From the sequence record PQ306574.1: 64,000 nucleotides of DNA; one strand, 5' to 3'. The first letter of the stretch is position 1. The number at the start of each line of letters is the position of its first letter. Below the pieces are notes generated by a model. The model did no database searches, was not told the DNA's origin, and saw only the letters and a list, made by a program, of their open reading frames with translations. The position numbers and the translations under genes are program-made. Positions 21,670 to 43,312 of the stretch are shown here, piece by piece. Source of the stretch: Escherichia phage vB_EcoM_PTE-Eco09.

Positions 21670-21927
21670 ATGAGTCGAAGTTTTGATTTTATGATCGCCA
21701 AGTGTCATCGAGAAAAGAAATCGATGGACCTGTTTATGAAATGTCTGAGATATGAATATGCGCACCTTCGTAAACACAAAATTGACCCGCAAGTTTCCTA
21801 CGAAAACATCAAGAAATATGCGAAAGAAGTGATTGACAACGATTGCACCGTGACATATAATGCGTTTATTGATTTATGGGCGTGGGATGTAATCTACGCA
21901 GAGATGGACAAAGAAGATTTTAATTAA
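21670..21927 (+). CDS. hypothetical small protein
   Basis: 85-aa ORF. Confidence 0.4.
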   Translation: MSRSFDFMIAKCHREKKSMDLFMKCLRYEYAHLRKHKIDPQVSYENIKKYAKEVIDNDCTVTYNAFIDLWAWDVIYAEMDKEDFN

Positions 21928-21941
21928 GTGAGGATTATATT

Positions 21942-24056
21942 ATGAAAATGCATATTGATAATGAAGAAGTATTTGGCAGTGACCTGAGCGGTGCGGTTGA
22001 TTTTTCACTGAAAGCAAGTAGCAAGGCTTTTATGGTGCTTTCTAAGAACACTTATCAATATTGTGAGCGTGCTTGCGTCCGTGAGTATTCGTGCAATGCT
22101 ACCGACACTCACAAAGAAGCCGGAACCTTAGATCGTCCGTTTGATATTCATTTACCGACTGCAATCGAACCGTATTTCTCTGTGCGTGATTATGGTACTG
22201 GTATTCCGTCTAAGAAAGAATTAGAACAACTGTTTACGGTTTACTTTGAATCAACAAAAGACCAGACTAATGACTATATCGGGTCTTTTGGTTTAGGTGC
22301 GAAATCTGCTTATAGCTACACTGACACCTTTACAATCGTAAACTATTACAATGGTCGCGCTTATGGCTTTACGGCATTTGTGCAAAACTCTATGCCGAAA
22401 ATGGTGCAGATTTTCGACGAACCGACCTATGAAGACAATGGTCTGAAAATCACTATTCCGGTGAAAGAAAAAGATATTCAGACATGGCATCGAGAAGCGC
22501 AATTTGTACTGCGTCATTTTGGGGAACACAAACCTAATATCAATGCAATCGAAATTAATTATTTCCCTAGCTTTGATAATTATTATGTTTGTAATGGGCG
22601 TGATAACGATTCCTATGTAGTATATGCAATCATGGGTAAGATCCAGTATCCGATCCCGTATGAATATGTTCGCGGAACATGGTTAGAAGCTGTAAACCGC
22701 CAGCACCAGACCATTTACATTAATTTTGAGTTGGGTGATCTGGACCTGATGCCATCGCGTGAAGAAGTTCACTTGTCAATTGAGACTAAAGCGAACATCG
22801 AAAAACGCATTGCAGAAATCAATGAAATGATGTTGGAAAAGGTCAAAGAGAAGATCGCCAACATTAAAACAGAGCGTAAACTTGCGCAATTTATGAGCGA
22901 GTATTCATCGACTCAACGCAATATTATTAGCAAGATGGGTAAGATCGGGCAGTGGGATGATCCGGTAGCAATCTATAATAAGTTTGTGAATGCGGGTAAA
23001 GATTCGCCTAATGACGTAGAAGGTCAGGTGTATACTCTGTATCGTACTCGTCACACAATCAGTAAATTGCGCCCTGCTTTCGTTAGCAGTCAATACAACA
23101 TTACGCATTTTGTATGGATGCATAAAGAAGATATTATGTGTCTTATTGATGATACCGATAAACCGAAACTACGCGCACTGACTCTTAACGGTATGGTCCA
23201 GGAATACGGCATCAATAAAAAGGTACTGGTGTTCCGTCAGCGCAACGAAAAACATATGGAAACTTTCGAGTACATCAAACAGTATTATGATGATTCTGAA
23301 ATGACCGTGATTAAAGTTTCTGAGGCCGATGATCTGCGTGCTAAAGCAGTTAAACCGGAGAAGACCGAGCGTACACGTACACAACGTGAAGCGACTCCTA
23401 AGCTGCCTAACGTGTATATCATGGAAAAGATTGGTGACAGTTGGCATAAAACCAGCCATCACATGAAAGCGGCAGAGATTCGCGAGTTATCAGGCTTGCA
23501 CATGTTCCGCGTAGGTGATGCATTCGAAAGCCGTAGTCGTAAATCGATCCATAGTGAAAATACATTACACACGGCGCTTGACTACTTCGGGGTAACAAAG
23601 TATATTATTACTCGAAACGAGACACAAAAATATCTCGTTGACGAACAATTGGAATGTGCGCTAGAATTTGTTCGCGGTAAGCTGGCTGGTCTGGCTAAGA
23701 AGGTTAAGACCAATCATCTGGGGTATGGCGAATATCTGGGTGTGATCACTATGTTGTTTCATGACGATGAACTAGAAAGCTGTGTTCCAGAATTTATTGA
23801 CAGACTGTACGGTCGTCATTATAATAAAGAGGTTTCCAAGTTACTCCTTCGTACTCGTTGGATTATGGACGAAGAAACTAAAAAGATTTGTGATGAAAAA
23901 TTCACGGTAGCAAACGAACGAATTAAAGCAGTTTGTGCGAAGTTTAAAGAGAATAGCCCGTTACTGTATGATATTGTAGATAACTGGTATCGTATTCTGC
24001 ATAATGACAAACGCGCACAAGACTTTATGAAACTGGTTAAGAATGTTAAATTTTAA
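21942..24056 (+). CDS. rIIA: rIIA-like protein with N-terminal GHKL-type ATPase fold
   Basis: 704 aa; Bergerat-fold motifs (DYGTGIP, GSFGLGAKSAYSY); position 39 -> rIIA -> rIIB as in T4. Confidence 0.7.
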   Translation: MKMHIDNEEVFGSDLSGAVDFSLKASSKAFMVLSKNTYQYCERACVREYSCNATDTHKEAGTLDRPFDIHLPTAIEPYFSVRDYGTGIPSKKELEQLFTVYFESTKDQTNDYIGSFGLGAKSAYSYTDTFTIVNYYNGRAYGFTAFVQNSMPKMVQIFDEPTYEDNGLKITIPVKEKDIQTWHREAQFVLRHFGEHKPNINAIEINYFPSFDNYYVCNGRDNDSYVVYAIMGKIQYPIPYEYVRGTWLEAVNRQHQTIYINFELGDLDLMPSREEVHLSIETKANIEKRIAEINEMMLEKVKEKIANIKTERKLAQFMSEYSSTQRNIISKMGKIGQWDDPVAIYNKFVNAGKDSPNDVEGQVYTLYRTRHTISKLRPAFVSSQYNITHFVWMHKEDIMCLIDDTDKPKLRALTLNGMVQEYGINKKVLVFRQRNEKHMETFEYIKQYYDDSEMTVIKVSEADDLRAKAVKPEKTERTRTQREATPKLPNVYIMEKIGDSWHKTSHHMKAAEIRELSGLHMFRVGDAFESRSRKSIHSENTLHTALDYFGVTKYIITRNETQKYLVDEQLECALEFVRGKLAGLAKKVKTNHLGYGEYLGVITMLFHDDELESCVPEFIDRLYGRHYNKEVSKLLLRTRWIMDEETKKICDEKFTVANERIKAVCAKFKENSPLLYDIVDNWYRILHNDKRAQDFMKLVKNVKF

Positions 24057-24067
24057 GAGGTGATATT

Positions 24068-24199
24068 ATGACTAAACTGACCGCTATCCAGAAAGAAACA
24101 ATCCGTAAACAATACGCTCGCGGCTTGACTAAAGGCGAACTGGCACGAATCTATAATGTATCAGACCGCACAATCCGCAAGGTTGTAGAAGCAAAATAA
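24068..24199 (+). CDS. stand-alone helix-turn-helix mini-protein, paralogous to the rIIB N-terminus
   Basis: 43 aa LTAIQKETIRKQYARGLTKGELARIYNVSDRTIRKVVEAK; similar to residues about 20-60 of the downstream ORF. Confidence 0.5.
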   Translation: MTKLTAIQKETIRKQYARGLTKGELARIYNVSDRTIRKVVEAK

Positions 24200-24252: not shown

Positions 24253-25254
24253 ATGAATACTATGACTAAAGCAAAAATCACCGTCTCTGACCGTAACGTT
24301 CAATGCCTGGATTCTGAAAAACAAATCAAACTGGCTAAACAGTGGGGCGAAGGTAAGTTTACTACCCGCGAAGCACTTGCGGCAGCATTTGGGGTATCTC
24401 GTCGTACTGCCTCCCGTGTATTACTGATTCAGAAAGACGCAGTAGCGGAAGGTCGCAAGGCACTAGAAAAACGTAAAGCACGCCGTAAAACCAGTAAAGG
24501 AAAAGGCGGTGAACGCGCAAAAAAGCCCGTAACTACTTCCTCAAAAATCGTAGCCATAGCCTCAACTAAGTTTATTACTATTACATGTGGTGACATTGTT
24601 TATACTGCTGATCCATCACATGTTAACTTTAAGGAAGCACTGGAAGCGATTAAACATAATGATTTCATCAAAGCTATTACGCTGATTGACATTAAGAAAG
24701 CGGTTGAAGTATATTATCACGGCGCTTTCCGTATCGAAAATGGTATTGTGTATTATCATAATATTGTTCTTGATAATAATCTGACTCGTCGAGTTGTGGA
24801 GTCGATTAAAGAGAATAAGCCATATACGCACTATCTTAACTTCTTTGAGAAGTGCAAGAAAAACCCTAGCCGTAAGGCCGTAGATCGTCTATTTGACTTC
24901 TTAGAGCACAACGACATTGAGATCGTGGAAGATGGTTGTTTCTATGCATGGAAACGTGTTGATGTTGATTATAAAGATTTCTTTACGCATACGTTTGATA
25001 ATAGCCCAGGTCGCACGGTTAAAATGAAGCGTAAAGACGTGGACCCAGATGATGATCGCACTTGCTCTAATGGCCTCCACGTTGCAGCTAAACACTATAT
25101 TCCGCACTATGGCGGTGGACGAGGCCGAATCATTAAATGTAAAGTTGATCCGCGTCACGTTGTAAGTATCCCGAAAGATTATGCGAATGCCAAAATGCGC
25201 TGTCATCGTTACTATGTGGTTGAAGATGTAACCGAAGGTTTTAGACATTACTAA
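24253..25254 (+). CDS. rIIB: rIIB protein
   Basis: 333 aa; PSRKAVDRLFDFLEHNDIEIVEDGCFYAWKRV...FDNSPGRTVKMKRKDVDPDDDRTCSNGLH matches remembered T4 rIIB. Confidence 0.8.
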   Translation: MNTMTKAKITVSDRNVQCLDSEKQIKLAKQWGEGKFTTREALAAAFGVSRRTASRVLLIQKDAVAEGRKALEKRKARRKTSKGKGGERAKKPVTTSSKIVAIASTKFITITCGDIVYTADPSHVNFKEALEAIKHNDFIKAITLIDIKKAVEVYYHGAFRIENGIVYYHNIVLDNNLTRRVVESIKENKPYTHYLNFFEKCKKNPSRKAVDRLFDFLEHNDIEIVEDGCFYAWKRVDVDYKDFFTHTFDNSPGRTVKMKRKDVDPDDDRTCSNGLHVAAKHYIPHYGGGRGRIIKCKVDPRHVVSIPKDYANAKMRCHRYYVVEDVTEGFRHY

Positions 25255-25268
25255 CAGAGGAATTAATT

Positions 25269-25595
25269 ATGGTTGATATGAAAGTTACTTGCGAAAGTGC
25301 ACATGTTGAAGTTGAAAGTAGCCAATATTCATTGCGTCCGTCCGGTCGCGTTACTGTGACTATGGATGATGTTGATTTGGTTAATAATGTTAGTGTTGAA
25401 GATATCGTTAATGAGTATGATCATAGCGAACTACTAGACGCAATTCCTGAACATGTTGTGATCCAGCACGTAGTAAGCAATAATGATCCATCGACTTTCA
25501 TCAAAGAATATGGCTCTGATGAAATGCTCGATGAAATTGGCGAAAAGATTGTTATTGCATGGCTTGAAAACAACGGTTATACTGTAGAACAATAA
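25269..25595 (+). CDS. strongly acidic small protein (DNA-mimic candidate)
   Basis: 108 aa with about 24 Asp/Glu versus 5 Lys/Arg. Confidence 0.5.
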   Translation: MVDMKVTCESAHVEVESSQYSLRPSGRVTVTMDDVDLVNNVSVEDIVNEYDHSELLDAIPEHVVIQHVVSNNDPSTFIKEYGSDEMLDEIGEKIVIAWLENNGYTVEQ

Positions 25596-25640
25596 TCAAC
25601 ATAGGCCGCTTTGCGCGGCCTTTCTTAGAGGGAATACATT

Positions 25641-25936: not shown

Positions 25937-26299
25937 ATGCTAGGTCATTCTAAAATAGAAGATTGCTCATTCAGAGCAATGAAAGATGATTTTTCGGTCC
26001 TGTACGCGTCTATCCGAGAGTTGTTTGTAGATTTTAAGCAATTCAGAGAATACAAAGGCGTTAAGATGCGGGAGTGGGTATTCTGGCCTTTCTATATCAT
26101 TACTCTGTTTTCTATGGTATTTTGTTTTGTCGGGATCACTATCGCTAGTTTTGTCACTTGCGTTTTCCTGATTATCAGGTGTATCATGTTTGCTTTGATT
26201 GCTGCCCCGTTTATTGTGTCAATCCTTCCGTTAAAATGGCTATTGGATTGGGCTGATAAATCTGATAAAGTAAAGAATGTGATTTGTAAGCGTGTATGA
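25937..26299 (+). CDS. integral membrane protein (2-3 predicted TM helices)
   Basis: Hydrophobic stretches WVFWPFYIITLFSMVFCFVGITIASFVTCVFLII and MFALIAAPFIVSILPL. Confidence 0.5.
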   Translation: MLGHSKIEDCSFRAMKDDFSVLYASIRELFVDFKQFREYKGVKMREWVFWPFYIITLFSMVFCFVGITIASFVTCVFLIIRCIMFALIAAPFIVSILPLKWLLDWADKSDKVKNVICKRV

Positions 26300-26306
26300 G
26301 GTGAAG

Positions 26307-27653
26307 ATGAATAAATCAGTTACTTACCGCAGCCTTGAAAGCATTGTACATAATGAAGCTAAGGAATATGCGATCTATTCTGCCGAGGAACGCGGGATTC
26401 CTCAATTAGTGGATGGGCTTAAACCAGTGCAACGCTTTGTTATGGAATGTGCTTTGCAAAAGAGTAAAGGCGACCGTAAGAAATTCCGTAAGATGGCAGA
26501 TATTGGATCTGGTGTCGCTGAGTTGGGGTATCACCACGGCGAAACTAATGCCGTAGAAGCCGGATCACTCATGGCGAATACATGGAGCAATAATACTCCA
26601 CTGCTTGACGGTCAAGGTAACTTCGGATCGCGTTTAGTCCAGAAAGCAGGAGCGGCACGTTATATCTTTGCTCGTGTGCATGAAAACTTCTTTAAAATCT
26701 ATAAAGATATGAATTGCGCACCTAAGCACGAAGATCTGGAACACATCCCGCCAGCGTTCTACTTGCCAGTTGTGCCAATGGTATTGGCTAATGGTATTAG
26801 TGGTATTGCTTCAGGGTATAAAACTGACATTTTACCGCATTCACTGGAAAGCCTTATTGAATGCACAGAGCTAGCACTTGCCGGAAAACTGGATAAAGAA
26901 CCTAATGTTCAATTCCCGAAATTCACGGGTAAAGTTATCCCGCGAGATGATCGCGATGGTGTGATTCTTGAGGGTACATATGAACTAAACGGCAAGACTA
27001 AACTGACAATATCAGAAGTTCCTTATAAGTTCGACCGTGAAGAATATGTAGCGGTACTGGATGCACTGGAAGAAAAAGATCTGATTGTATCGTATAATGA
27101 CCGTTGCTCTAAGGACGGATTCAGATTTGAAGTAACACTGAAACGCGATTATTTCAAAAGCGAAGATGAATCCGCTCGACATGAGCAAATCATGAAGGAT
27201 TTTAAACTAACACAGTTAGTAGCCCAGAATATCGTAGTGGTTAATGAACGTGGTTTAGTAGAAGTATTCGAGAAAGCGAGCGATCTGATCCGTCGATTCG
27301 TCGAAATCCGATTAGGGTATGTCGATAAACGCATTGAATTGATGCAAGCGGAAACGCTGGAAGCATACAATTATGCAATGGCTAAAGCCGAATTTATCGA
27401 CCGCGTAATTAAGGGCGAAATCGAGCTACAGGGCAAGAAAAAGGCCGAGGTAATGCAATCCATCAATGGACATGAAAAACTGCGTCCATACGCCGATAAG
27501 CTAGTTTCTATGCCATTGTATAGCGTTACTCAAGAAGAGTATGATCGACTGGTCAAAGATGCCGATAAACATCATAGTGAATATGAGTATTGGACAAAGA
27601 CGACCGCAATGAAGGAATATAAGAAAGATCTTAAAGAACTTAAGAAGGGTTGA
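26307..27653 (+). CDS. 52: topoisomerase II medium subunit gp52 (GyrA-like)
   Basis: GLKPVQRF, ANTWSNNTPLLDGQGNFGSR, ARYIFARV; ATG 26307 with RBS. The track ORF begins at an upstream GTG. Confidence 0.9.
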   Translation: MNKSVTYRSLESIVHNEAKEYAIYSAEERGIPQLVDGLKPVQRFVMECALQKSKGDRKKFRKMADIGSGVAELGYHHGETNAVEAGSLMANTWSNNTPLLDGQGNFGSRLVQKAGAARYIFARVHENFFKIYKDMNCAPKHEDLEHIPPAFYLPVVPMVLANGISGIASGYKTDILPHSLESLIECTELALAGKLDKEPNVQFPKFTGKVIPRDDRDGVILEGTYELNGKTKLTISEVPYKFDREEYVAVLDALEEKDLIVSYNDRCSKDGFRFEVTLKRDYFKSEDESARHEQIMKDFKLTQLVAQNIVVVNERGLVEVFEKASDLIRRFVEIRLGYVDKRIELMQAETLEAYNYAMAKAEFIDRVIKGEIELQGKKKAEVMQSINGHEKLRPYADKLVSMPLYSVTQEEYDRLVKDADKHHSEYEYWTKTTAMKEYKKDLKELKKG

Positions 27654-29666: not shown

Positions 29667-30425
29667 ATGAAAAACATTATCGCTGCTATCGTTCTTTCCG
29701 CTACTGCTTTCGGTGCTAATGCTGCGTCCTTTGATTGCGCTAAAGCCACTACCAAATCAGAGAAGTTTATTTGTGCTAATGAGTCAATCTCCGCACTGGA
29801 TTCGAAACTTCATGAAGTATATGTTAAGGCTGTTAAGATTGATCCGTCTCTTAAACAAGAGCAACGTAACTGGAATAAAACTGTTCGTGATACAATGATC
29901 AATATCGGGCAGATTCAGCCACTGGAGGCTGTATATAACGCTCAAATCCAAAACTTGATGAATGTATTACCTAAAGAAGAAACCGCGTCAGAAAGCGATT
30001 CAGAGACTTCTGTGAAGGTTGAAGAAGAACAACCGAAACAGGAAGCAAAAGTGGTAGAAGAACCGAAGGTCGAAACTTTTACCTATCAATGCACCGTTCG
30101 TTATGAGTGGAGTATGAAAGATGGAATTTCTACCAAAATTAAAGAAGCGCCACTGTATGCCAAATATGGAAATCAACCAGGAGATCTTAAAGTAACCATT
30201 AAAAATGGGAAGATGGTTGATTTTGTATACATTGATGAATACAACGTACACAAAGCAAACGTACAAGAAACCGTTATGACTAAAGGCGGGTTTTATAAGA
30301 ATGTTGGCAAGAAAGATCTATATGAATACTCCGTTTTCGAACCAAACGACGGAACTATTCGATTTGAAAAACGTCATCCGACATTCGGTGGAGCAATTGA
30401 TGTAGATCAATACGTTTGCAAGTAA
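29667..30425 (+). CDS. secreted protein with DUF1311/LprI-like N-terminal domain
   Basis: Signal peptide MKNIIAAIVLSATAFGANA; then FDCAKATTKSEKFICANESISALDSKLHEVY, matching the DUF1311 pattern as remembered. Confidence 0.5.
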   Translation: MKNIIAAIVLSATAFGANAASFDCAKATTKSEKFICANESISALDSKLHEVYVKAVKIDPSLKQEQRNWNKTVRDTMINIGQIQPLEAVYNAQIQNLMNVLPKEETASESDSETSVKVEEEQPKQEAKVVEEPKVETFTYQCTVRYEWSMKDGISTKIKEAPLYAKYGNQPGDLKVTIKNGKMVDFVYIDEYNVHKANVQETVMTKGGFYKNVGKKDLYEYSVFEPNDGTIRFEKRHPTFGGAIDVDQYVCK

Positions 30426-32112: not shown

Positions 32113-32442
32113 GTGATTATGATCGAGTTTGAAATTGACAACTTTCACGAAAAAGCAGAAGACCTAACCAAAATTTTGATTAGTCGAGGTGCATATAATA
32201 CGAAAGATATTATAAAAGAAGTTAATGTAGCGATGGACGCGATCCGAAAGGAATTTAAACATATTTCAGCAATTGGAGAAAATGGTCATCTTGAAGATGT
32301 TGAGCTGGTAGCACTGCGACGCTATTACTTCTTTGTTGATTGCATCATTGATCTAGCTAAAAATTATAGTCATTACATGAAAGATATTGTAAAAGATGCA
32401 CGTAAGCTGGCAGAGAATGTTTACGGGAAGTTTCCAGAATGA
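32113..32442 (+). CDS. hypothetical protein (paralog of 31672-32004)
   Basis: 109 aa; see above. Confidence 0.45.
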   Translation: MIMIEFEIDNFHEKAEDLTKILISRGAYNTKDIIKEVNVAMDAIRKEFKHISAIGENGHLEDVELVALRRYYFFVDCIIDLAKNYSHYMKDIVKDARKLAENVYGKFPE

Positions 32443-32687
32443 AATTAGAACAAGCGATTGTTTATTTTGAGATGGGCTATGATATTGCTCGTGTAGAGTG
32501 GGAAGATGGTGATTTTGTCCGATTGATTGATCTTCCCGAAACAGCTATTGCACTGGTCAAAGTAGAAAACGGCATACAACGCAATTACGCGTTTTCTGAC
32601 GAAGACAAACAAGCCGATGACTGGTACGCTACCTGTTTTCATCATACAGCGTCAAAATGTGATTCAGGGGCTTCTATGCGCCAATAA
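32439..32687 (+). CDS. hypothetical protein
   Basis: 82-aa ORF, the last + strand gene before the convergent holin. Confidence 0.4.
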   Translation: MKLEQAIVYFEMGYDIARVEWEDGDFVRLIDLPETAIALVKVENGIQRNYAFSDEDKQADDWYATCFHHTASKCDSGASMRQ

Positions 32688-32722: not shown

Positions 32723-33379
32723 TTATCTAATCCTTCCGAGGATTCTGGCAGATTGATTGCAAAGAGTATCTAAATTCTCAATGTCAATATCCGGTTTATT
32801 CTTCCATGCAATGGCGATACTACCAGAATAGACATTATCGAGATTGAATATAGGGCAAGAATACATAAACCCTATATCGATACTCTCTAATTTCTTTTCT
32901 CTTGATGGAATATACTGGAAATCTTTATCGGTAAAATAGGATTTACCTAAAAGATGCCTACGATATTCTTCACTCGTTTTATTGATAGGGAATCCGCCTA
33001 AATTCTTTTCGTCGATTGTATGAGGTAACTTTCCTTCATATGCCACCAAATCAACAAAATAGTTTAGGTTTTTCGGACGAAAACTAAAAACAGCAGAAAA
33101 ATCGGCATCAGCCGACACATGAACTATCTGTAACTGCTCCTGTGCTGCATTATCAAAATTGCGGTCTTTCTCTACCTGGAGAACGTGAGCATAAGTCTCA
33201 TAACGAGTCTCTTTATAAAGCGCAAATAACTCGTTTTTACTATAAACGACAAATGCTAATATGGACAACACGACGGCAGCAAAAACACGAAGTACGAGCA
33301 ACTCCGTGCTTTTAGTTGTGAAAATAGCGCGCAGGACATTTGAGATAGCAAAGTCTTTCCCTTTTTCAGAAACTTGCAT
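32723..33379 (-). CDS. t: holin T (T4 t-type, single N-terminal TM plus periplasmic domain)
   Basis: 218 aa; EQLQIVHVSADADFSAVFSFRPKNLNYFVDLVAYEGKLP...ARILGRIR matches remembered T4 gp t. Confidence 0.9.
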   Translation of the reverse strand: MQVSEKGKDFAISNVLRAIFTTKSTELLVLRVFAAVVLSILAFVVYSKNELFALYKETRYETYAHVLQVEKDRNFDNAAQEQLQIVHVSADADFSAVFSFRPKNLNYFVDLVAYEGKLPHTIDEKNLGGFPINKTSEEYRRHLLGKSYFTDKDFQYIPSREKKLESIDIGFMYSCPIFNLDNVYSGSIAIAWKNKPDIDIENLDTLCNQSARILGRIR

Positions 33380-33412
33380 ATAATGCCCTAAGATAACTAT
33401 GACAGTGTACTC

Positions 33413-33652
33413 TTATTTAGGTAGTTGACTATCACTAGGGTTATCTTGCTCGTTACTATCTTCTGACTGATCTTTATTAAACTCCTTATAAAGTTCTTCC
33501 ACAAAACGATCATCAATTGGCGTATTGGTATAAGCCGCAAGACGACGAGCGCAATAGAAGAAAATTTTAGTGAGCATCTTTTCACTAATTAGCTTTGACA
33601 ATAATTTCATTCCGAAATTAGACAAAGCACCAATGACGATATTATAGACCAT
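33413..33652 (-). CDS. hypothetical small protein between fibre gene 37 and holin
   Basis: 79 aa; amphipathic N-terminus and acidic C-terminus; occupies the slot where T4 has gene 38. Confidence 0.4.
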   Translation of the reverse strand: MVYNIVIGALSNFGMKLLSKLISEKMLTKIFFYCARRLAAYTNTPIDDRFVEELYKEFNKDQSEDSNEQDNPSDSQLPK

Positions 33653-33692
33653 AGCCGTTTCTCCTTAGTAGTTCCCTTCCCTGGGAGTTTCC

Positions 33693-36635
33693 TTAATTCT
33701 TTTTAAGTTCCGCTAGTTCAGCTTTAACGGCTTTCAATTCTTCGCTCATTTCCTGAAACGCCTTAATTAAAAGAGCGTTGACAGCGGAGTTAGAAATTGT
33801 TAAGATCTCTTCTGGATTATCTGGATCGCCGATCTTAGAAGTTGTTACGGCTTCCGGCAATTCTTTTTCAAGATCCTGAGCAATAATACCAACTTCATGA
33901 GCAATGACAGTACGGTCGGTTAAAGATTTAACCTTGTCATAGGTGTATACCGTCAAGCGATTAACTTTATCGGTTGCATTCTCTTTATACTCTTCCTTGT
34001 TGATTTTAAGGCGAGCATCAGAACGAATATACACATCGTTAAAGTTACCATTGCGACCAGCTTGGAAATCACCGGAGGCGTTAAAGTCAAAGTTTGTGGT
34101 ATGAATATGAAGACGTGCCATAGCATTAGTAATAACACCACTAGGAACGTGTACACCCATTGCTGCGATGTGGTCGAAACCCCATTTGGTCGCTTTCCAT
34201 ACGTTATATGCGGAAGTTTGAGCATTAGGACAATCAACCAATAAGCCAGCAGCGCGAGTTTTCCATTCTGACCATGCACCACCTTGTACTTCTCCGCGAA
34301 TCAGGCCATTACCATCACCGGATACAGTGCCAGATTCCAACTGGATCATTTTATCCGCAAATTTCCACGCCTGGGCTTGTTTCTGACCACGGAAGCGAAT
34401 AACACCAGCATCATCGCAGTACATCAAGCCTAACTCTAAACCGTTTGGATCTCTAAACCAGATGTGCTTATTGCCAGTGCGTTTAAACTCAATATCAGCA
34501 CCGTTCAGGGTAATATTACCGCCAGTGTGAATTGCTTTAGGCTTAACAGTACCATTAATGCCAAACTCGATTAATTCAGTACCCGGACCACCCGCACGTT
34601 GAGTATACCAATGCCAGCCGCTTTCATCAGCACATTCAAATACTTGTTTACGAGCATCAGCGCCCCATGCACGAATATTGAAACTAGAAGTAGCTGTACC
34701 CTTACCCCAGCGAATCAGACCAGCAGATTCCAAATCACCGAAGAATTTAGTTTTAATCGCACCAGTTGCTAAAGTACGTTCAGTGGTGAAGTGAGCACCT
34801 TTACTATCTTCAAGCTGTATAACGTTATCACGAGCGTTATTGCTATCGCCCCAATGACTCAAACGGAAATAGTCGCGGGATTGTCCAGCACCAGCATCAA
34901 ATGTTAAATATTGGCCTTTAATGTATGTGTTTCCAGCAAAACGAGCAGCACGACTTGCACGTTCTAAGACTAATGCACCTTCTTTACCATCACCACCCAA
35001 AGTAACATTACCGCTACCCAGATTGTAAGTGAATGGACGATAGCCGTTCCAACCACCAAATTTATCATTTTCGGCAGTAGACAGAAGATATACGTTTTGA
35101 CCATCATTACGCCAGAATGCACCATAGTTACCGTAAATCATACGGAATGCATCACTGTTAGCAGCTACATATTGACCATTGGTGTATACAATTTTTGTTT
35201 TTCCTGTAGTCAAATTTACTTGTCCACTACCTTCCAAATCAAATGAGTTAGCACCAACATCATTACGCCACACAAAACCATCACTAGTACCATCCGCATG
35301 ACCGATATAACCACTACGTTGGTTTTTACCATCACGACGATCCCACCACGCCATATATGCAGCTTGACCAGTCTGTCGATGTAAAGTCATCGCATTACCA
35401 CCACCGTGCAATTCCATTTTACCAGTAATTACATATCCTTTATAATTACCCGGTATTGCACTATTAGAATCAATTCTAATAACTTCTGTAGAATCTGTAG
35501 CACCAGTAGCAAGACGATATACAGCACCCTGAACGGTTTCATGCCAGGTCATTTCATTATAGTTACTACGGAATTTACGAATATATTTTCGTCCAGTACC
35601 CCTATCATTACTCAAGTGAACAATATCATAACTGTTTTGTGTGTTATCGTCAAAACTCAACACACCTCGTTTGTTTTCGGTGTTGAAAAGAGTTACAGCA
35701 CGACCGCCAATAACATTATCACCAGCAGGACGTTCAGCAACAAAATCTGGAACGTCATGAACTACCAGATTAACACCAACACTTTTACCAAATTCAACAA
35801 TAACGTTATCAGTGTAACGCTGATATTTCACATAGATATCATAGTTATCACCAGAAGTATTAACAGCCAAAACATCAAATGATTTGTTTGTATTTCGGCG
35901 ATATGCAATAACGTTAACACCTTTAGGGCGACCATTTCCACTGCGAATAACAATTTCTACAATATCAACTTGATCGTATGCAGTAACGTTATATCCGTTA
36001 CCGCCATGAATACGGAAAAATACGCTAAGACCGTTTTGTGGAATCATTGCAGTTGCTAATTTAAAATAGCCTTCAACGATATCACTAGGAGATGTAGCAA
36101 GTTTAACGTTCTTAACAAACATACGGTCAACTTCTTGTTTGCTATAGACGTTCAATTCTCCTGGAGTTGGTTTATCACCTTCGTGATACATTTTATAGCT
36201 AAATGCTTTTTGACCTTCTCTATTATAGCCATAGGTTTCAACACGAGATCCAGCAGACGCATAACGGAAAGTAAATCCGCGACCGTGCGCTTTACCGGCA
36301 GAATGAGGAACGTTAAGAGTTAGATCCCTGAGTCCATCTTGACCATTGGTACGGAAAGCACCAAAGTAGTTAAGATCTCTCGCTGTCTGGTCTTCCAAAT
36401 AGTTAGCTGTTTTACTTAAGATATAATTATTACCTTTAACCTTACCCGCCATTGTAACATCGCGGTCATACACCGGAGGACAACTTAAATTGATAATATC
36501 ACCGGAATCATTTTTAGTAAGAAGATATTGATCCGCAAGGTTGATTGCCAATTCCCCCGGATTCATCGTACTAGCATCCGGTTTACGACCTTTAGTGCTA
36601 GTGCGTTTAAATTGGATTCTGCTTAAATCTGCCAT
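33693..36635 (-). CDS. 37: long tail fibre distal subunit gp37 with C-terminal intramolecular chaperone domain
   Basis: 980 aa; N-terminus MADLSRIQFKRTSTKGRKPDAS...GELAINLAD matches the T4 gp37 N-terminus; C-terminal SDARLKINKEEY plus coiled coil is typical of autoproteolytic chaperone domains. Confidence 0.8.
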   Translation of the reverse strand: MADLSRIQFKRTSTKGRKPDASTMNPGELAINLADQYLLTKNDSGDIINLSCPPVYDRDVTMAGKVKGNNYILSKTANYLEDQTARDLNYFGAFRTNGQDGLRDLTLNVPHSAGKAHGRGFTFRYASAGSRVETYGYNREGQKAFSYKMYHEGDKPTPGELNVYSKQEVDRMFVKNVKLATSPSDIVEGYFKLATAMIPQNGLSVFFRIHGGNGYNVTAYDQVDIVEIVIRSGNGRPKGVNVIAYRRNTNKSFDVLAVNTSGDNYDIYVKYQRYTDNVIVEFGKSVGVNLVVHDVPDFVAERPAGDNVIGGRAVTLFNTENKRGVLSFDDNTQNSYDIVHLSNDRGTGRKYIRKFRSNYNEMTWHETVQGAVYRLATGATDSTEVIRIDSNSAIPGNYKGYVITGKMELHGGGNAMTLHRQTGQAAYMAWWDRRDGKNQRSGYIGHADGTSDGFVWRNDVGANSFDLEGSGQVNLTTGKTKIVYTNGQYVAANSDAFRMIYGNYGAFWRNDGQNVYLLSTAENDKFGGWNGYRPFTYNLGSGNVTLGGDGKEGALVLERASRAARFAGNTYIKGQYLTFDAGAGQSRDYFRLSHWGDSNNARDNVIQLEDSKGAHFTTERTLATGAIKTKFFGDLESAGLIRWGKGTATSSFNIRAWGADARKQVFECADESGWHWYTQRAGGPGTELIEFGINGTVKPKAIHTGGNITLNGADIEFKRTGNKHIWFRDPNGLELGLMYCDDAGVIRFRGQKQAQAWKFADKMIQLESGTVSGDGNGLIRGEVQGGAWSEWKTRAAGLLVDCPNAQTSAYNVWKATKWGFDHIAAMGVHVPSGVITNAMARLHIHTTNFDFNASGDFQAGRNGNFNDVYIRSDARLKINKEEYKENATDKVNRLTVYTYDKVKSLTDRTVIAHEVGIIAQDLEKELPEAVTTSKIGDPDNPEEILTISNSAVNALLIKAFQEMSEELKAVKAELAELKKN

Positions 36636-36669
36636 TTTATAAAATCCTTAAACGGTTATTAGAATAATA

Positions 36670-36700
36670 TTATTTAGAAAAGCGGGGAGATAATCCCCGC
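36670..36700 (-). terminator. hairpin terminator between genes 36 and 37, with a late-promoter-like element for gene 37 nearby
   Basis: Minus strand GCGGGGATTATCTCCCCGC followed by TTTTCTAAATAAT. Confidence 0.45.
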
Positions 36701-36705
36701 TAAAA

Positions 36706-38196
36706 TTAGAAAGTACCAAAATCAATCACCGCATTAAGTGGAACCGCTCCAACATCAGCCGGAGTAGGTTTATTACCTTCATGATAAAGCTGATAGCGGT
36801 CCACGGTTTGAGTATTGTTTCGAGAACGGAAAAACACGACCTTTGAGTCGTGGGTGATCCCCAGCTTTTCGGTCCCTTTAATATCACTAATGCGGTGAAT
36901 CATAGCAGTACCATCAGCACCGCTTAACGCCGCATAACAGTTATCCCCGTTATAGTTAGTTTTAGCTGTTCTAACGCCATTTGCAGCCGGAACAGTTAAC
37001 GGTCCTGTCATGGTATCGCCAGTTACGTTAACATAGCGAATATCGGCTAATTTACGGTGATCTACATAGTTCCATGCAGTCCAGGATTCATTAGAACACG
37101 AACGCCAGCACATCGGATGGTCAATAGATTCAGGATAATACACCTGAACAATTCGACGAGTACCGACCGCATCTTCTGGTCGATATACCATCAAAACGCC
37201 GTTATAATAGCTATCAGACGGTTTATTAGTACCTGACCCAGCATTTTCCACACGATAGATACCGCGATTAATAAGAGTGTTCCAATCAACGTTTCCAATG
37301 ATGGTTGGATTTGCTACCATTGATTTTCGCTCAAAGTAGCTCAAACGAACCAATTCATTAGGACCAGCGGGATCGTTTGTCGCCAACATTCTAGGCGCTT
37401 GCAAGTTACCTTCCATAATATCACCAGCACGTTTAACCTGTGCATCATTGGTGACATTGCCTAGCCCAACATCGGCTTTAGTTGGTTTATTGTTGGTGTG
37501 ATAAAAACGACCTTCTCTGCCATTAACAAAAATGGTAGGCTCATCTTTACTTCGGAAGACCAACGTATCAAGAACGTTACCATAATAGATCTTAGTCGCA
37601 TCAAAATTAATTAAATCACGTTCCCTTGCAATTAATTTCGAATCAACCGATAGTTTAACAGTGACAGTGTTTAAATTATACGTTCCTGAGAGAGTATCAC
37701 CGCGACGGGAAACTAAATCCAAATCATTATTCGTTGGTTTATTAACAGGGCTATAGACACGTTGACCTGTGTCTTTAATGGTTGTCCCTTCGATAGTCCC
37801 TTTAGACTTAAATTCGCCCGTTGTGGTGTCAATATACGCCATAATAACGCCATCACGGGCATTAACAAAGCCGATTGACTTCCATGAATGCAAACCCCAG
37901 CTTACGCCGTCAAAATTAGCAGCGTCGCTCTGACCTTTAAAGATACCATTCTTTTTGGTTTCTCCAGCCGATGCGCTACCTACGCTTAAACCTTCCTCGA
38001 AATGAACTTGCTTTTGAAATGTGCCACCTTCGGATGCACTAACAGCATCAAAATCGGTAGCCGAAGGTCTATCAAAAGCGGTATAGATTTTATGACCTTT
38101 GTAGAAAAGCTGATCCCCCGCTGGCTGGATCGTCAAGTTTCCTTGCGTCCAAATGGGAGATCCACCTACAGTAGATCCATATTTCAAATCTGCCAT
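36706..38196 (-). CDS. 36: long tail fibre hinge/distal connector gp36 (enlarged)
   Basis: N-terminus MADLKYGSTVGGSPIWTQGNL matches T4 gp36 (MADLKVGSTTGGSVIWHQGNF), but 496 aa versus about 221 aa in T4. Confidence 0.75.
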   Translation of the reverse strand: MADLKYGSTVGGSPIWTQGNLTIQPAGDQLFYKGHKIYTAFDRPSATDFDAVSASEGGTFQKQVHFEEGLSVGSASAGETKKNGIFKGQSDAANFDGVSWGLHSWKSIGFVNARDGVIMAYIDTTTGEFKSKGTIEGTTIKDTGQRVYSPVNKPTNNDLDLVSRRGDTLSGTYNLNTVTVKLSVDSKLIARERDLINFDATKIYYGNVLDTLVFRSKDEPTIFVNGREGRFYHTNNKPTKADVGLGNVTNDAQVKRAGDIMEGNLQAPRMLATNDPAGPNELVRLSYFERKSMVANPTIIGNVDWNTLINRGIYRVENAGSGTNKPSDSYYNGVLMVYRPEDAVGTRRIVQVYYPESIDHPMCWRSCSNESWTAWNYVDHRKLADIRYVNVTGDTMTGPLTVPAANGVRTAKTNYNGDNCYAALSGADGTAMIHRISDIKGTEKLGITHDSKVVFFRSRNNTQTVDRYQLYHEGNKPTPADVGAVPLNAVIDFGTF

Positions 38197-38227
38197 AAAG
38201 TAACCTCAAAAATTAGTTATAGTTCCG

Positions 38228-38250
38228 AGTATTTATAGAATGTTAACAAA
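38228..38250 (-). promoter_or_regulatory. T4-type late promoter (TATAAATA) upstream of gene 36
   Basis: Minus strand reads CTATAAATACTC about 40 nt upstream of ATG 38196. Confidence 0.5.
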
Positions 38251-38355
38251 ATATCGCTTCGCGACGTGCCGTAGGCACTGGCTATTTTTTAACCGAAACA
38301 AATTTTCTATTATTCTAAAGATCTTTCTTCGTTTTGGTTACAATTTAACCAACTG

Positions 38356-38386
38356 TATAAAAATAAAGCCGACCACATGGATCGGC
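38356..38386 (-). terminator. intrinsic terminator after gene 35
   Basis: Minus strand GCCGATCC-ATG-TGGTCGGC followed by TTTATTTTTATA; same hairpin as the + strand terminator at 28264. Confidence 0.65.
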
Positions 38387-38398
38387 TTGTTAAAAATG

Positions 38399-39538
38399 TT
38401 AATCAACATCGAACTCTTTAAAGTTGTTGGATGTGATGTGTTTATTATCTCTGGGTAGTTTAAGAAGACTCATTACAGGGTTAGTAAAATCACCGTTATC
38501 CTGAATATGAGTTGTTCTAACACCATTAACACCAAATGAAGTAGGACCAGTAGTTTTGACGACTCCACTGATCGGCGTTATTAGTATGTTTCTAATTTTA
38601 ACCATACCTTCATTGGAGTTGGTTGGATATCTGATACAACCAGTTACTACACTATCAACTCCTTCCGGTACGGTATAGACGGCTTCAAACTTTTCCCATT
38701 GGTCTTTTTTGCTGGCATTGTATCGAACACCAGTTTGATATTGTCCATCGGTGAAGTAGTTGTGATAGAAACGCGCTGTTACGTTGGCTGCGGCTGCGGC
38801 ACTATCACGGAACAATTCAAAGGATATTGATAGTTTGTCACCTGCCTTTATGTTAAAATCCTCAAGTGGGGCGCTGGTCTCATCATGAGGCCATTGTATT
38901 AGCTCGAAATGTTCGGCATCTTCGCTAACATACTCAACCGGATAATCTAAAAATCGTTGTGGTGTTCCTGTTATAGCAAGATCATCTATAGTATCATAGA
39001 CTTTCTCAATTTGTATAGATGAATCTTGTCCTTCCCCGTGAGTTGCTTGCATCCCTTCGCACACAATTTTACCCATTTTAGTAGAATAAATTGCTGCATA
39101 TGATACACGAGGCATTTGCTGTAGCAAAATGTGATTCGGGAATGATACAGATCCCAGCTTAGAGAATACACCATCACTGATCGGATCTGCAAACAATTCT
39201 CCATGCGTTGCCATCGCAATGATATAGTCACCTTTCAGCAAAGAAAGATAATCACGCATTGCCAAAACAGCACCGCGACCATAGAATACCTTTTCTTCGT
39301 GTAGTTGTCCAGTTGGAGTAAGAACTTTAAAATTTAGGCCATTTTCATAGCCAGTGCCAACGATCTCCACTCCATTAAATCTAATCCTTGCTGGTTTGGT
39401 AGAATCCGCATTAGATCCGCGCACTTCCAGCTTATACATCACAGAGTTATTTTCTGAAATGCTGGTAAATGTCGCAGAGTCTTCGTCGAAATGCGCAAAC
39501 CTAATTCCAGTATTGCGTAATTCTATATCTTGTGTCAT
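38399..39538 (-). CDS. 35: long tail fibre hinge protein gp35
   Basis: 379 aa (T4 gp35 is about 372 aa); position between 34 and 36. Confidence 0.6.
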   Translation of the reverse strand: MTQDIELRNTGIRFAHFDEDSATFTSISENNSVMYKLEVRGSNADSTKPARIRFNGVEIVGTGYENGLNFKVLTPTGQLHEEKVFYGRGAVLAMRDYLSLLKGDYIIAMATHGELFADPISDGVFSKLGSVSFPNHILLQQMPRVSYAAIYSTKMGKIVCEGMQATHGEGQDSSIQIEKVYDTIDDLAITGTPQRFLDYPVEYVSEDAEHFELIQWPHDETSAPLEDFNIKAGDKLSISFELFRDSAAAAANVTARFYHNYFTDGQYQTGVRYNASKKDQWEKFEAVYTVPEGVDSVVTGCIRYPTNSNEGMVKIRNILITPISGVVKTTGPTSFGVNGVRTTHIQDNGDFTNPVMSLLKLPRDNKHITSNNFKEFDVD

Positions 39539-39571
39539 AATAACCCCATAGGGGGCTTTCGCCCCCTTTAA

Positions 39572-42500
39572 TTAGTCTTCCCAGATAAAGTCTACGGTAC
39601 GAGTCAGATTATTGGCGATGATTTTAACATTACCAACCTTGATCCAGTCACGAACCGTCATAGAGTTCATTAAACCACCTTCTGCAACAACTGCCCCGAT
39701 TTCCTGAGCGGTAGGCTTATTCTGTTTGGTGTAAATTTCACCCCATGCGGTCCATTGACCACCAGTACCGGAACGGATATAATGTTTATGAGTACCATCA
39801 GGGGACCAAAGCTGGGTAAGCCCGTCCGCGTCAGTACCCCATTGCATCAGAGTACCGTTTTTCTTCTCTGGATAAGTTTCTTTGATGTTCTGGGTAGTAA
39901 CTCGCATATTCCAGAAACCGATGTTACCGATTGCCGGAGCGGTTGCCGCGCTAGCTTCATGCTTAACAGAAACAATAGGCGCATTATCCATAGTCAGCTT
40001 GCCGACCATTGTATCGCCAGCATTCTTAACAAACCGACGGTTAAGAACTTCGTCGGCGTTTCCTGCGTGTACGATCTGATATTTCTGTCCGGCGATCTCT
40101 GTAGTTAACGTTTGAGAACCTGCCTTGATGTTAACACTTCCACCGTGACCGATATTCAGCGTACCATCTGGGGAACGAGTCATTGCCGGATTAGACTGGT
40201 CAACAATGTATAAACCGCCTTGTTTCGCATACAGGTTACGACCTGCAATAAAGTCTCTATATGCTGTCGCGTCGCCATTGTGTTTCATAGCAAAGGCGTA
40301 ATGCTCAACGACTCCACCATCATTGATTTTACCGAAAGAGATAGCATCACTATCAACAACTTGCGCTGTTCCAGTACCACCAACGATAATAGACCAAGAG
40401 TTTTTCATTCCTTCCGATGCGGTTGTGCCATGCAGAGTAATTCCGGTGTGACCGTCAACTCCACGATCACCCAACACCAGATGACCATTACTCGGAACAT
40501 CGGTCGAGTTCTTAGTCACAGACAGAGTTTCAAAGGAACCTGATTTTAAGCACTCTAAATCGCCCTTCACGTTAACGTTTTTATTAAACGTGTAATTGCT
40601 CTCTATGGTCTGATCAATGTCTCTACGCGCCCATTTAGAGGCCTCTACGTTACCCAATTTCAAACTATTCTGAGCGGTTGCCATCTTAGGTAAGAAATTA
40701 GCAAGTGCGTAGTTTAATCCTTTAGGGGTAACAGCAATTCCGTCATGCTGGTAGTTTCCTAGTTCTTGAGTAGAACCTTGCAGATTATCACCAACAAAAC
40801 AGTTTTCCTGAGTAGCAACTTTCAAGAATCCACGACGCGCTTCGGTTGCTTTCCATGTATCCTCTGTCTGAACAACATATTTGAAGTTCTTCGGAGAAAT
40901 TGCTACATTGTCCATAATACCAGCCACGGTTTCGGCGTGAGTACCAACTCGGATAATACCTTCTTTACCTTCGGTGGCCTTTTTGCCTTGCAGCTTTTTA
41001 GGCGTGATGATTGTAGTATCATCTTGACCAGCGTCAGTAAGCTGAGTAGTCGCAACTTTAGCGACACCTTTTGTATCTTCGGTTGCATCCAGACCGCTGA
41101 TCATGATACCTTGCCACAAATCACCAGTAAGGTTAAGCCCCTGAGTCGGATCTACTTTCAAACGCTGTGCATTCTCAAAGAAGGTTTTAATCTTCAATGG
41201 GGTAGAAATGCGATCATCGTCACGACCTGCGTCAAATTCCGGCTGAGTTGCAATTTCTGCTAAACCGTGTAAAGTTTCCGTTGCGCGGCGAGTATGCAAC
41301 TTTTTAGGCGTGATGATATGGTTATCACTTTGACCTAAGTTTGTTTCTTCCTGAGTTGCAATTTCAGCGATACCAGTGCGCGATTCGGTAGCAGTACGTT
41401 TCGTTAGCGTGCGAGTCGTGATTAGTAAAGCATCTTGCGGGGTTGATTCTGTAGCCCCTTGCACTTCCGCGTCAGTTGCCAGATAGCCAACACCACGGGA
41501 AGTTTCGGTCGCCTTGACTTCGTTGATGTTTTGTGGCGTAACAATTTTAGCATGGTCGTTGATGTTATAGATCCCTGTACCAGCTTCGCCACGTCGAGCG
41601 GCAGCACTACCGCCAACCTGAACAATTTCAGCAATACCAGCGAGATCTTCGGAAGCGCGACGTTCTTCTAATTTCTTAGGAGTTATTGCGCGAGTATCGT
41701 CTAAACCTTCATTGGTTTCGTGCTGGGTTGCAATTTCCATCACACCACGACGGGCTTCGGTAGCAACACAGTCATTTAACTTTTTGGGTGTAACGATAAC
41801 ATCATCCAGGAAGTTGGAACCAGTATCTTGATGCGTTTCCGCTTGAGTCGCAATGCGAGCAATACCGCGTCGAGTTTCGTTGGCTGTTTTATTAGACAGC
41901 ATTTTTGGTGTTACAGCAACTTCGTCGCTAGGATTCTCTTCATGGTTTTTATTCGTTTCAGTCTGGGTAGCCAGTGCAATTACACCAACACGATCTTTAC
42001 GAGTCGGATCTACTCGTTCTACAATCGGGTGAGCATGTGCCACCAACCAGTATTTCTTACCATCATCACCTTCTGAATAAGAGAACTCCAGATAAGGTAC
42101 ATAATCATTTGCAGCGTTGAAAGACAATTCAGACACTCCAGTCCATGTATCGGTCCCATTGAATGGGTACTCGCTACGCTTAGGAAACTGAACCATGTTT
42201 TTCTGCATAAGGATTTTTGTATCCTCTTCTGAGGTAATGATTCGGCAAGTCTGGTTTCCGTGCATATACTGCATAGAAACTTGAATACGATCACCCGGCT
42301 CGACATTGGTCGGCAGCGTCAGAGTAACATCACGACCACCAAATACAGCAACATAGCTATTAGGTTGCAAGCGAGTGTCATTGATGATCGGTTTAAGACG
42401 AACAGACTGATCACCATCCCACAAACGCCATAAGTTTTCCGTCTTGTCAAAGATGAATACACCATGACCGCTACGCTTACCGATAATCTCTTTTAGACCG

Positions 42501-43312
42501 GACGTGCCAATTGATTGTTCTTCTGCGTGCTCATGAACTTTAACCGTAACGTGGTTGGTTGCGGTTAATCCGTCAAGGTCTGTAGTCTGGATCATGTCGC
42601 CATTGTTGGCAAACTTAGGAAGCACTAAGGTAATATTACCCAACGAACTACGACGAAATACCTGATCACCATTCTGCATTTGAATAGCATCAATCGCTGG
42701 CTGTGCGTACACACCGCGTGGCTCTGTTCCTGTCTGATAAACATGCCAACGATTACGAACAAAGATGAAATAGTTCATTGCATACGGGGTAGTGCAATAC
42801 CATTTTCGGTTGTACACATTACCGTTATGGTAAAACTCATGTCCTGTACTCAAAAACGATAATTCGTTAACACCACACTTGCCACCGATATCTTTTACTG
42901 TTATAGTGTCTCCCTCTGCTGGTTTAGTTGGCATAGAGAAAGTCAAGTTTGCAAATTGACCATCTGCTGCGATATAATCACCAGACTGTAAAGGAGTATC
43001 ACCGGAAGTTGCTGCAATATAATCCCAACGTGGGTCCGTGCGCAGTGCTTGCCATTTAGTCGGGTCAAAATCACCTGCTGGCTTTGTGATATCTTCTTTT
43101 GCATAATACGGACGGTTTTGATAGATTGTAGTTCCGTATTGATCATAACCGCGAGTTGTGTCATACTGAGTAATGCCATTATGGTAATTGAAAAATTCAA
43201 CGTTGACCGCATCCGTTGATGTGTTTTTATCTGCGTATGCTACATTGACGACCTTTTCATTACCAGCGTCAAAGCCAAATGTGGCCTTGAAATGTTGAGA
43301 AAAATCTGCCAT
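39572..43312 (-). CDS. 34: long tail fibre proximal subunit gp34
   Basis: 1246 aa; repeated ATE(T/A)RRG(V/I)AEIATQ units; C-terminus GNVKIIANNLTRTVDFIWED matches the T4 gp34 C-terminus. Confidence 0.9.
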   Translation of the reverse strand: MADFSQHFKATFGFDAGNEKVVNVAYADKNTSTDAVNVEFFNYHNGITQYDTTRGYDQYGTTIYQNRPYYAKEDITKPAGDFDPTKWQALRTDPRWDYIAATSGDTPLQSGDYIAADGQFANLTFSMPTKPAEGDTITVKDIGGKCGVNELSFLSTGHEFYHNGNVYNRKWYCTTPYAMNYFIFVRNRWHVYQTGTEPRGVYAQPAIDAIQMQNGDQVFRRSSLGNITLVLPKFANNGDMIQTTDLDGLTATNHVTVKVHEHAEEQSIGTSGLKEIIGKRSGHGVFIFDKTENLWRLWDGDQSVRLKPIINDTRLQPNSYVAVFGGRDVTLTLPTNVEPGDRIQVSMQYMHGNQTCRIITSEEDTKILMQKNMVQFPKRSEYPFNGTDTWTGVSELSFNAANDYVPYLEFSYSEGDDGKKYWLVAHAHPIVERVDPTRKDRVGVIALATQTETNKNHEENPSDEVAVTPKMLSNKTANETRRGIARIATQAETHQDTGSNFLDDVIVTPKKLNDCVATEARRGVMEIATQHETNEGLDDTRAITPKKLEERRASEDLAGIAEIVQVGGSAAARRGEAGTGIYNINDHAKIVTPQNINEVKATETSRGVGYLATDAEVQGATESTPQDALLITTRTLTKRTATESRTGIAEIATQEETNLGQSDNHIITPKKLHTRRATETLHGLAEIATQPEFDAGRDDDRISTPLKIKTFFENAQRLKVDPTQGLNLTGDLWQGIMISGLDATEDTKGVAKVATTQLTDAGQDDTTIITPKKLQGKKATEGKEGIIRVGTHAETVAGIMDNVAISPKNFKYVVQTEDTWKATEARRGFLKVATQENCFVGDNLQGSTQELGNYQHDGIAVTPKGLNYALANFLPKMATAQNSLKLGNVEASKWARRDIDQTIESNYTFNKNVNVKGDLECLKSGSFETLSVTKNSTDVPSNGHLVLGDRGVDGHTGITLHGTTASEGMKNSWSIIVGGTGTAQVVDSDAISFGKINDGGVVEHYAFAMKHNGDATAYRDFIAGRNLYAKQGGLYIVDQSNPAMTRSPDGTLNIGHGGSVNIKAGSQTLTTEIAGQKYQIVHAGNADEVLNRRFVKNAGDTMVGKLTMDNAPIVSVKHEASAATAPAIGNIGFWNMRVTTQNIKETYPEKKNGTLMQWGTDADGLTQLWSPDGTHKHYIRSGTGGQWTAWGEIYTKQNKPTAQEIGAVVAEGGLMNSMTVRDWIKVGNVKIIANNLTRTVDFIWED

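Follow-up and report, generated by a model that had tools for sequence, protein, structure and literature searches.

Directly behind rIIB in Escherichia phage vB_EcoM_PTE-Eco09 (record PQ306574.1; the window is the whole stretch of 64,000 nucleotides that was analysed) lies a real gene, under constraint, for a strongly acidic protein of 108 aa whose family is shared by prophages and T4-like phages and is undescribed until now. Acidity is a conserved trait throughout this family, and the insertion that distinguishes its 103–108-aa form is a duplication of one helix pair. With regard to function, we consider it plausible rather than probable that the protein is a stoichiometric binder or inhibitor of a host protein that has a basic, probably nucleic-acid-binding surface and works in DNA-end processing, repair or defence. 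True DNA mimicry, which is a subset of this reading, seems unlikely to us.

The acidic gene, its neighbours and its constraint

The gene and the elements around it are the following (coordinates in the window):

21833..21861, + strand: perfect TTGACA-17-TATAAT promoter-like site 5' of rIIA (consensus match only)
21942..24056, + strand: rIIA (phrog_612, 2e-187)
23797..23825, + strand: second perfect TTGACA-17-TATAAT promoter-like site, within the rIIA 3' end and directed towards the 43-aa ORF, rIIB and the acidic gene (consensus match only)
24068..24199, + strand: helix-turn-helix (HTH) ORF of 43 aa between rIIA and rIIB (CENP-B_N type HTH, E 7e-6; phrog_15481)
24253..25254, + strand: rIIB, immediately 5' of the acidic gene and co-directional with it (phrog_609, 3e-106; RB49 annotation)
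25257..25260, + strand: Shine-Dalgarno sequence GAGG, 8 nt 5' of the ATG, read from the sequence (the Makalu_003 record annotates an RBS here)
25269..25595, + strand: acidic gene, 108 aa, stop codon included (RB49p272 orthologue; phrog_14049)
25603..25621, + strand: GC-rich stem-loop (7-bp stem, 5-nt loop) followed by UUCUU, a weak terminator-like element
25937..26299, + strand: multi-pass membrane ORF of 120 aa, its end overlapping the start of gp52 (36% identity in the relative L004)
26292..27653, + strand: gp52, DNA topoisomerase II medium subunit, used as synteny anchor (Pfam DNA_topoisoIV, 2e-68)

The 108 codons of the ORF, beginning with ATG, specify 10 Asp and 13 Glu (23 acidic residues, 21%) and only 3 Lys and 2 Arg (5 basic residues). 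The initial annotation, made from the sequence alone, had given about 24 Asp/Glu, one more than we counted, and exactly the 5 Lys/Arg; the stretches it quoted (VEVESS, MDDVDL, SVEDIVNEYDHSELLDAIPEH and SDEMLDEIGEK) are all found in the translation, and the position that it described as directly after rIIB corresponds to a gap of 14 nt between the rIIB stop codon and the ATG. With a net charge of -18 and a pI of 4.09, the protein has the lowest pI of all 97 ORFs in the window that start with ATG on the + strand and reach 60 aa, and its charge per residue (-0.167) is about 1.7 times that of the next most negative ORFs (~-0.10). Such a high density of Asp/Glu, together with the low pI, is the composition of the DNA-mimic class; as sole support for DNA mimicry, composition is weak evidence, and the DNA-mimic label for this protein is a guess from it. 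The nested minus-strand ORFs 25421..25573 and 25434..25592 received no support.

The stem-loop behind the gene has a predicted centroid structure of -13.6 kcal/mol (z-score -2.4), and a terminator is annotated at this place in the Makalu_003 GenBank record. Our terminator scan listed this palindrome for the minus strand and not for the + strand, which means that its T-tract is weak. Most simply, the acidic ORF is the last gene of an early unit formed by rIIA, the 43-aa ORF and rIIB. Since it is read in the same direction as rIIA and rIIB, with sigma-70 consensus promoters ahead of them, it would probably be made early. The 43-aa HTH ORF in the same unit is conserved in RB49, Skers and SSG23; the idea that it might be a copy of the rIIB N-terminus was rejected on comparison.

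The window comes from an RB49-like (Krischvirus) genome: this region is 98–99.5% identical to other Krischvirus genomes such as FL38, kaaroe and RB49, and the RB49 counterpart of the acidic ORF, RB49p272 (also RB49ORF270c), is annotated "hypothetical protein". Each of the 58 Krischvirus records matching the 3-kb region holds an intact copy, with 85–99% protein identity, and a tblastn search of 50,697 phage records with the window protein gave no match outside these 58. Pairwise dN/dS is 0.12–0.19 (five alleles; eight pairs with dS of at least 0.15; dS up to 0.58), which indicates that the gene is under purifying selection and is not a chance ORF. The constraint is uneven along the protein: the C-terminal two thirds show a dN of 0.006–0.026 and a dN/dS of ~0.05, while the N-terminal 42 codons are more variable than the remainder (dN 0.15–0.18), and the 2–3-residue indels seen within Krischvirus lie in one N-terminal loop (residues 17–26). 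That the ORF arose by chance, or is a decaying gene devoid of function, might be suggested by the lack of functional annotation anywhere and by two metagenomic variants, P0007 and P0008, that are frameshifted or truncated. This explanation, to which we assign practically no chance, is refuted by the selection and conservation data: dN/dS of 0.12–0.19, intact copies in 58 of 58 records, a good RBS and relatives detected at E-values as low as 1e-30.

Purifying selection within Krischvirus goes together with fast divergence outside it. In L004, a Krischvirus relative, the homologue of the acidic protein is only 40% identical to ours and the homologue of the 120-aa membrane ORF 36%, against 85% for the flanking rIIB and 84% for gp52, which marks both small ORFs as fast-diverging accessory genes. 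Fast divergence between relatives, purifying selection and presence in 58 of 58 records fit a gene that tracks a host partner.

Two further ORFs of the window showed domain matches of their own:

29667..30425, + strand: ORF of 252 aa with an LprI (lysozyme inhibitor) domain (E 3.3e-5; 24.7 bits, cut-off 22) and a signal-peptide-like N-terminus
32439..32687, + strand: Tad2-like (Thoeris anti-defence 2-like) acidic ORF, 82 aa, pI 4.46 (Pfam 27.9 bits, cut-off 25; E 3.4e-6)

The former may be an exported phage protein, judging by its N-terminus. The latter places a Tad2-like anti-Thoeris domain in the same accessory block as the acidic gene. It closes the run of + strand genes ahead of a series of long minus-strand ORFs (32723..43312), which by analogy with L004 are taken as holin t and the tail-fibre genes; L004 has a Tad2-like ORF at the corresponding position, beside its holin gene.

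The protein family and its internal duplication

The window protein matches phrog_14049 over its full length (residues 1–108, E 9.8e-66) and, more weakly, phrog_7311, which was matched by all 25 family members tested; by this full-length profile match and by the signature described below it belongs with these two groups, neither of which carries a functional annotation. A word-indexed search retrieved close Krischvirus alleles only. Exhaustive HMM searching followed by two profile iterations brought in some 100 relatives, every one of them annotated hypothetical; in prophages of Enterobacterales and Vibrio their E-values go as low as 1e-30. Most are 69–79 aa long and come from Enterobacter, Klebsiella, Citrobacter, E. 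coli, Yersinia, Serratia, Pantoea and Vibrio; two, of 103 aa each, are from other T4-like phage contigs.

Searches for more distant kin were negative. Pfam gave no family for the window protein at E<=0.1 and, for 25 relatives at E<=1, just weak matches to five unrelated families, and NCBIfam assigned no functional family. A sequence profile search of the PDB returned only bacterioferritin (E 0.05), through a short LLxxI...WLE stretch that we judged a chance match. With tblastn, the short-form members found nothing in the phage collection and a family member found no copies among 72,556 plasmids; the short-form members likewise had no blastn match in complete E. coli genomes. We found no mention of the gene in the literature by locus tag, PHROG ids or peptide strings, and these peptide strings are absent from the supplements of two accessory-gene screens. 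Among the candidates recovered, P0015 (1156 aa, seven matched stretches) proved to be a DUF11 repeat protein and was discarded as a repeat-driven false positive. P0052 and P0053 (80 aa, metagenomic) are chimeras that join the N-terminal 40 residues of the family to a tail, TVGTNIVNALTSHTSLTREQAIEVL, which is the C-terminus of a ~330-aa coiled-coil protein normally found a few genes downstream; they probably arose through a deletion inside the prophage operon.

An N-terminal beta-hairpin-like segment followed by V.(E/D)EIV.EY(G/D)...LLD.IG...VI.WLE..GYTV forms the family signature. Across 25 members, 26–93% identical to the window protein, the net charge is -5 to -20 and the pI 4.05–4.7, with six columns acidic in at least 80% of members (D36, E44, E49, D88, E92 and E100). 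Conservation of the hydrophobic positions L37, I46, Y50, L87, W98, L99 and V106 points to a folded domain. An extreme charge is not obligatory: certain Vibrio members, at net -5 to -6, are mildly acidic, and a paralogue of about 65 aa has some 10 Asp/Glu against 5 Lys/Arg by hand count. This less acidic paralogue (65–67 aa) lacks the first helix and occurs in some of the same lambdoid early-left operons:

L026 7276..7473: short paralogue (HMM E 4e-7)
L039 5748..5951: short paralogue (HMM E 4e-4)

Within the window protein three segments can be distinguished:

25269..25394, + strand: predicted beta-hairpin region, residues 1–42, with strands at 10–15 and 28–33 and the variable loop at 17–26 (AlphaFold2 model, low confidence)
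25407..25481, + strand: internal repeat copy 1, residues 47–71, VNEYDHSELLDAIPEHVVIQHVVSN, part of the 31-residue insertion
25500..25574, + strand: internal repeat copy 2, residues 78–102, IKEYGSDEMLDEIGEKIVIAWLENN, holding the signature LLDxIGxxxVIxWLExxGYxV

The two repeat copies are identical at 10 of 25 positions and align with a BLOSUM62 score of 49, a value reached by none of 2000 shuffles (18.5 +/- 3.7). The 103–108-aa proteins carry the 31-residue insertion (residues 52–82), which is absent from the ~75-aa form; it is the duplication of one helix pair. AlphaFold2 models of the acidic protein are of low confidence (pLDDT 47, later 61.5 with a pTM of 0.30), and fold searches started from them returned nothing and no link to any known inhibitor.

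The picture that emerges would be that of a folded, strongly acidic accessory protein, probably synthesised early in infection. Its family core would consist of the N-terminal beta-hairpin and the C-terminal LLDxIGxxxVIxWLExxGYxV helix-strand, with a variable number of short acidic helices in between. The family comprises the 65-aa paralogue and the 72–79-aa standard of prophages, and the 103–108-aa form of T4-like phages, which the helix-pair duplication produced.

Genomic contexts and the possible kinds of target

The homologue in L004 lies one gene 5' of gp52, directly before the counterpart of the membrane ORF:

L004 1215..1586: homologue of the 120-aa membrane ORF, adjoining the homologue of the acidic protein and 36% identical to the window version

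In L002, a 135-kb phage contig, the 103-aa form is found among small early ORFs near a DNA ligase and RdgC. The short form has a characteristic place in lambdoid prophages of Enterobacter, Yersinia and Vibrio, namely the early-left operon, after cI/N and before cIII, GamL, RecT/Erf/Rad52 and an exonuclease; in Rac-like elements it precedes RecE and RecT, and in one other element a family member stands first in an operon that also encodes an Rv2179c-like exonuclease, DUF2800 and an ssDNA-binding protein. Clustering of the neighbours at 33 loci revealed no constant neighbour or conserved partner gene, and the frequent neighbours had no Pfam match. The site 5' of recombination genes may just follow from the general layout of lambdoid early-left operons. 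In two of the Vibrio prophages the exonuclease beside RecT (L011 5515..7254 and L012 5568..7256, 560–580 aa) has precomputed Pfam matches to both the YqaJ and the T7 Gp5.9 (RecBCD inhibitor) families, as if a nuclease had been fused to an anti-RecBCD module.

These contexts invite the view that the protein is internal to the phage, an adaptor for its own recombination, replication or topoisomerase proteins. Family members indeed have gp52 close by in Krischvirus and L004, ligase and RdgC in L002, and RecT, Erf, Rad52 or RecE in prophages. But the adjoining recombinases belong to unrelated families (RecT, Erf, Rad52, RecE, Enc34), so that no single phage partner is conserved; no neighbour gene is constant; and 40% identity beside core genes at 84–85% is unlike a subunit of the core machinery. 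We therefore regard an adaptor role as quite unlikely.

A host target is suggested by the presence of relatives in the early operons of unrelated phage types. In our preferred explanation, the acidic surface would attach to a positively charged face of a host protein, probably one that contacts nucleic acid, and the action would be stoichiometric, in that binding itself would block the host protein. Candidates are host proteins that deal with phage DNA on entry or during replication, for example nucleases, complexes for restriction or repair, and nucleoid proteins. Early expression, binding to a protein, the class of target and any DNA mimicry are what we infer.

The target could also be a host protein that does not bind DNA, for instance a protease, the cell-division machinery, RNA polymerase or a toxin, which the phage protein would inhibit or modulate, its acidity serving solubility or a specific interface. 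Among the products of lambdoid early-left operons are Kil, with FtsZ as its target, and cIII, with FtsH as its target; many small early proteins of T4 have targets of this sort. Apart from the precedents of Kil and cIII in the very same operons, the least acidic members and the 65-aa paralogue keep the core and not the high charge, and the most conserved positions of the family are hydrophobic, not acidic. Against this, every member examined has a net negative charge, and the recurrent association with recombination and nuclease modules points to DNA transactions. On balance we take a target of this kind to be doubtful.

A more far-reaching version of the host-protein inhibitor, speculative and unlikely, would be a new, modular class of acidic, DNA-mimic-like decoys common to temperate lambdoid and Rac-like phages and to virulent T4-like phages. 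On their conserved scaffold of beta-hairpin and C-terminal helix, one, two or more acidic helix pairs would be mounted, duplication setting the length of the mimic surface. Their target would be a conserved enterobacterial protein other than BREX, active in DNA-end processing or in DNA-sensing defence.

The anti-restriction question and the known inhibitors

T7 Ocr (gp0.3) is a DNA-mimic inhibitor of type I RM and BREX, and T4 Arn is such a DNA mimic directed at McrBC. The initial annotation had proposed a DNA mimic with an anti-restriction role for the acidic protein, in the manner of Ocr, Arn and ArdA-type proteins. The strong acidity behind that proposal holds, and further support comes from the probable early expression and from the relatives in early accessory slots of other phages, a frequent place for counter-defence genes; sequence kinship to Ocr, ArdA, Arn, Gam or Gp5.9 is lacking. 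Neither the window protein (Pfam, E<=0.1) nor the 25 relatives (E<=1) match the Ocr family; ArdA, which is carried in the leading regions of plasmids and integrative conjugative elements, gave no Pfam match and the 72,556 plasmids no copies; tblastn disclosed no homology to T4 Arn, its matches being the 58 Krischvirus records only (T4 is presumed to be among the 50,697 records); and PF06064, PF28165 and PF25708 (Gam/GamL/Gp5.9) had no match in the family scan.

A mimic of the Ocr/ArdA/Arn type would block type I or IV restriction, and also BREX, through the DNA-binding grooves of these systems. The 21% Asp/Glu, the net charge of -18 and the pI of 4.09 resemble those of known DNA mimics, and expression is probably early. 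On the lambda map ral lies in the segment between N and cIII/gam, the very segment that the lambdoid family members occupy. Moreover, Krischvirus DNA often has unmodified cytosine, as in TB34 (PMC13390438), and anti-restriction would benefit such phages. On the other side, scans at E<=1 linked no member to the Pfam models of Ocr, ArdA, Gam or Gp5.9, the PDB searches gave no sequence or fold match, plasmid copies are lacking, and the behaviour of Krischvirus phages towards restriction, set out below, runs counter to it. Altogether we hold a mimic of this type to be very unlikely.

TB34, itself a Krischvirus, carries a full-length copy of the acidic protein, 97.2% identical to ours, and its cytosines are canonical (PMC13390438). 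Salmonella type I BREX restricts this phage 100-fold, and far more strongly in a brxL deletion, while T7 Ocr or Sp6 Gp5 supplied in trans fully abolishes the restriction (PMC11341690). An EPEC island in which type I RM and DarTG2 were tested jointly restricts it ~10^4-fold (PMC12255303). SAP, a sister Krischvirus with modified DNA, is cleaved and restricted by the type IV enzyme BrxU (PMC13390438). TB34 is thus restricted by BREX in spite of its own near-identical copy and is rescued by Ocr or Gp5 in trans, so the naturally present gene gives no Ocr-type protection from BREX. This evidence is indirect, coming from phages with the gene in place, and makes Ocr-like anti-BREX activity of the protein unlikely. 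Nor do the data on the RM-containing island give any sign of strong protection from the naturally present gene. If the protein is a counter-defence factor, BREX, the type I RM and DarTG2 island and BrxU are not its targets.

The present gain is a hypothetical protein that is better described, by its family, internal duplication, contexts and constraint, and a narrower set of options, from which Ocr-like anti-BREX activity has now largely receded. Should the family act in counter-defence or host takeover as an inhibitor, it would be a new and easily recognised module for the anti-defence catalogue and would tie T4-like phages to temperate ones through their early accessory regions. Knowing the target could be of value in itself, since Krischvirus phages, often with unmodified DNA, must survive by means besides base modification.

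Several known systems invite comparison. Lambda Ral and the further accessory genes of the N–cIII interval occupy the same early-left operon segment and are of similar size; the sequence of Ral is unrelated, and function is not transferable from position alone. T4 Arn is likewise a small acidic early protein of a T4-type phage, but the window protein has no homologue outside the Krischvirus records, T4 included if it is in the collection, and what Arn does with respect to McrBC relates to DNA containing hydroxymethylcytosine, which is absent from several Krischvirus phages. T7 Ocr is also similar, both proteins being of about 110 aa, very acidic, early (probably so in the present case) and largely helical, here in the C-terminal part. 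Yet there is no sequence similarity, Ocr is an elongated, all-helical dimer with surface carboxylates placed like the phosphates of bent B-DNA whereas a beta-hairpin N-terminus is predicted here (at low confidence), and Ocr blocks BREX, while TB34 with this gene needs Ocr in trans to escape it. T7 Gp5.9, likewise acidic, and lambda Gam/GamL are small and lie beside recombinase and exonuclease genes, as the prophage members of our family do. They differ in that the family matches neither PF25708 nor GamL, and in many prophage operons a GamL or Gp5.9 domain is encoded separately alongside the family member, so that the family is not a simple replacement for either.
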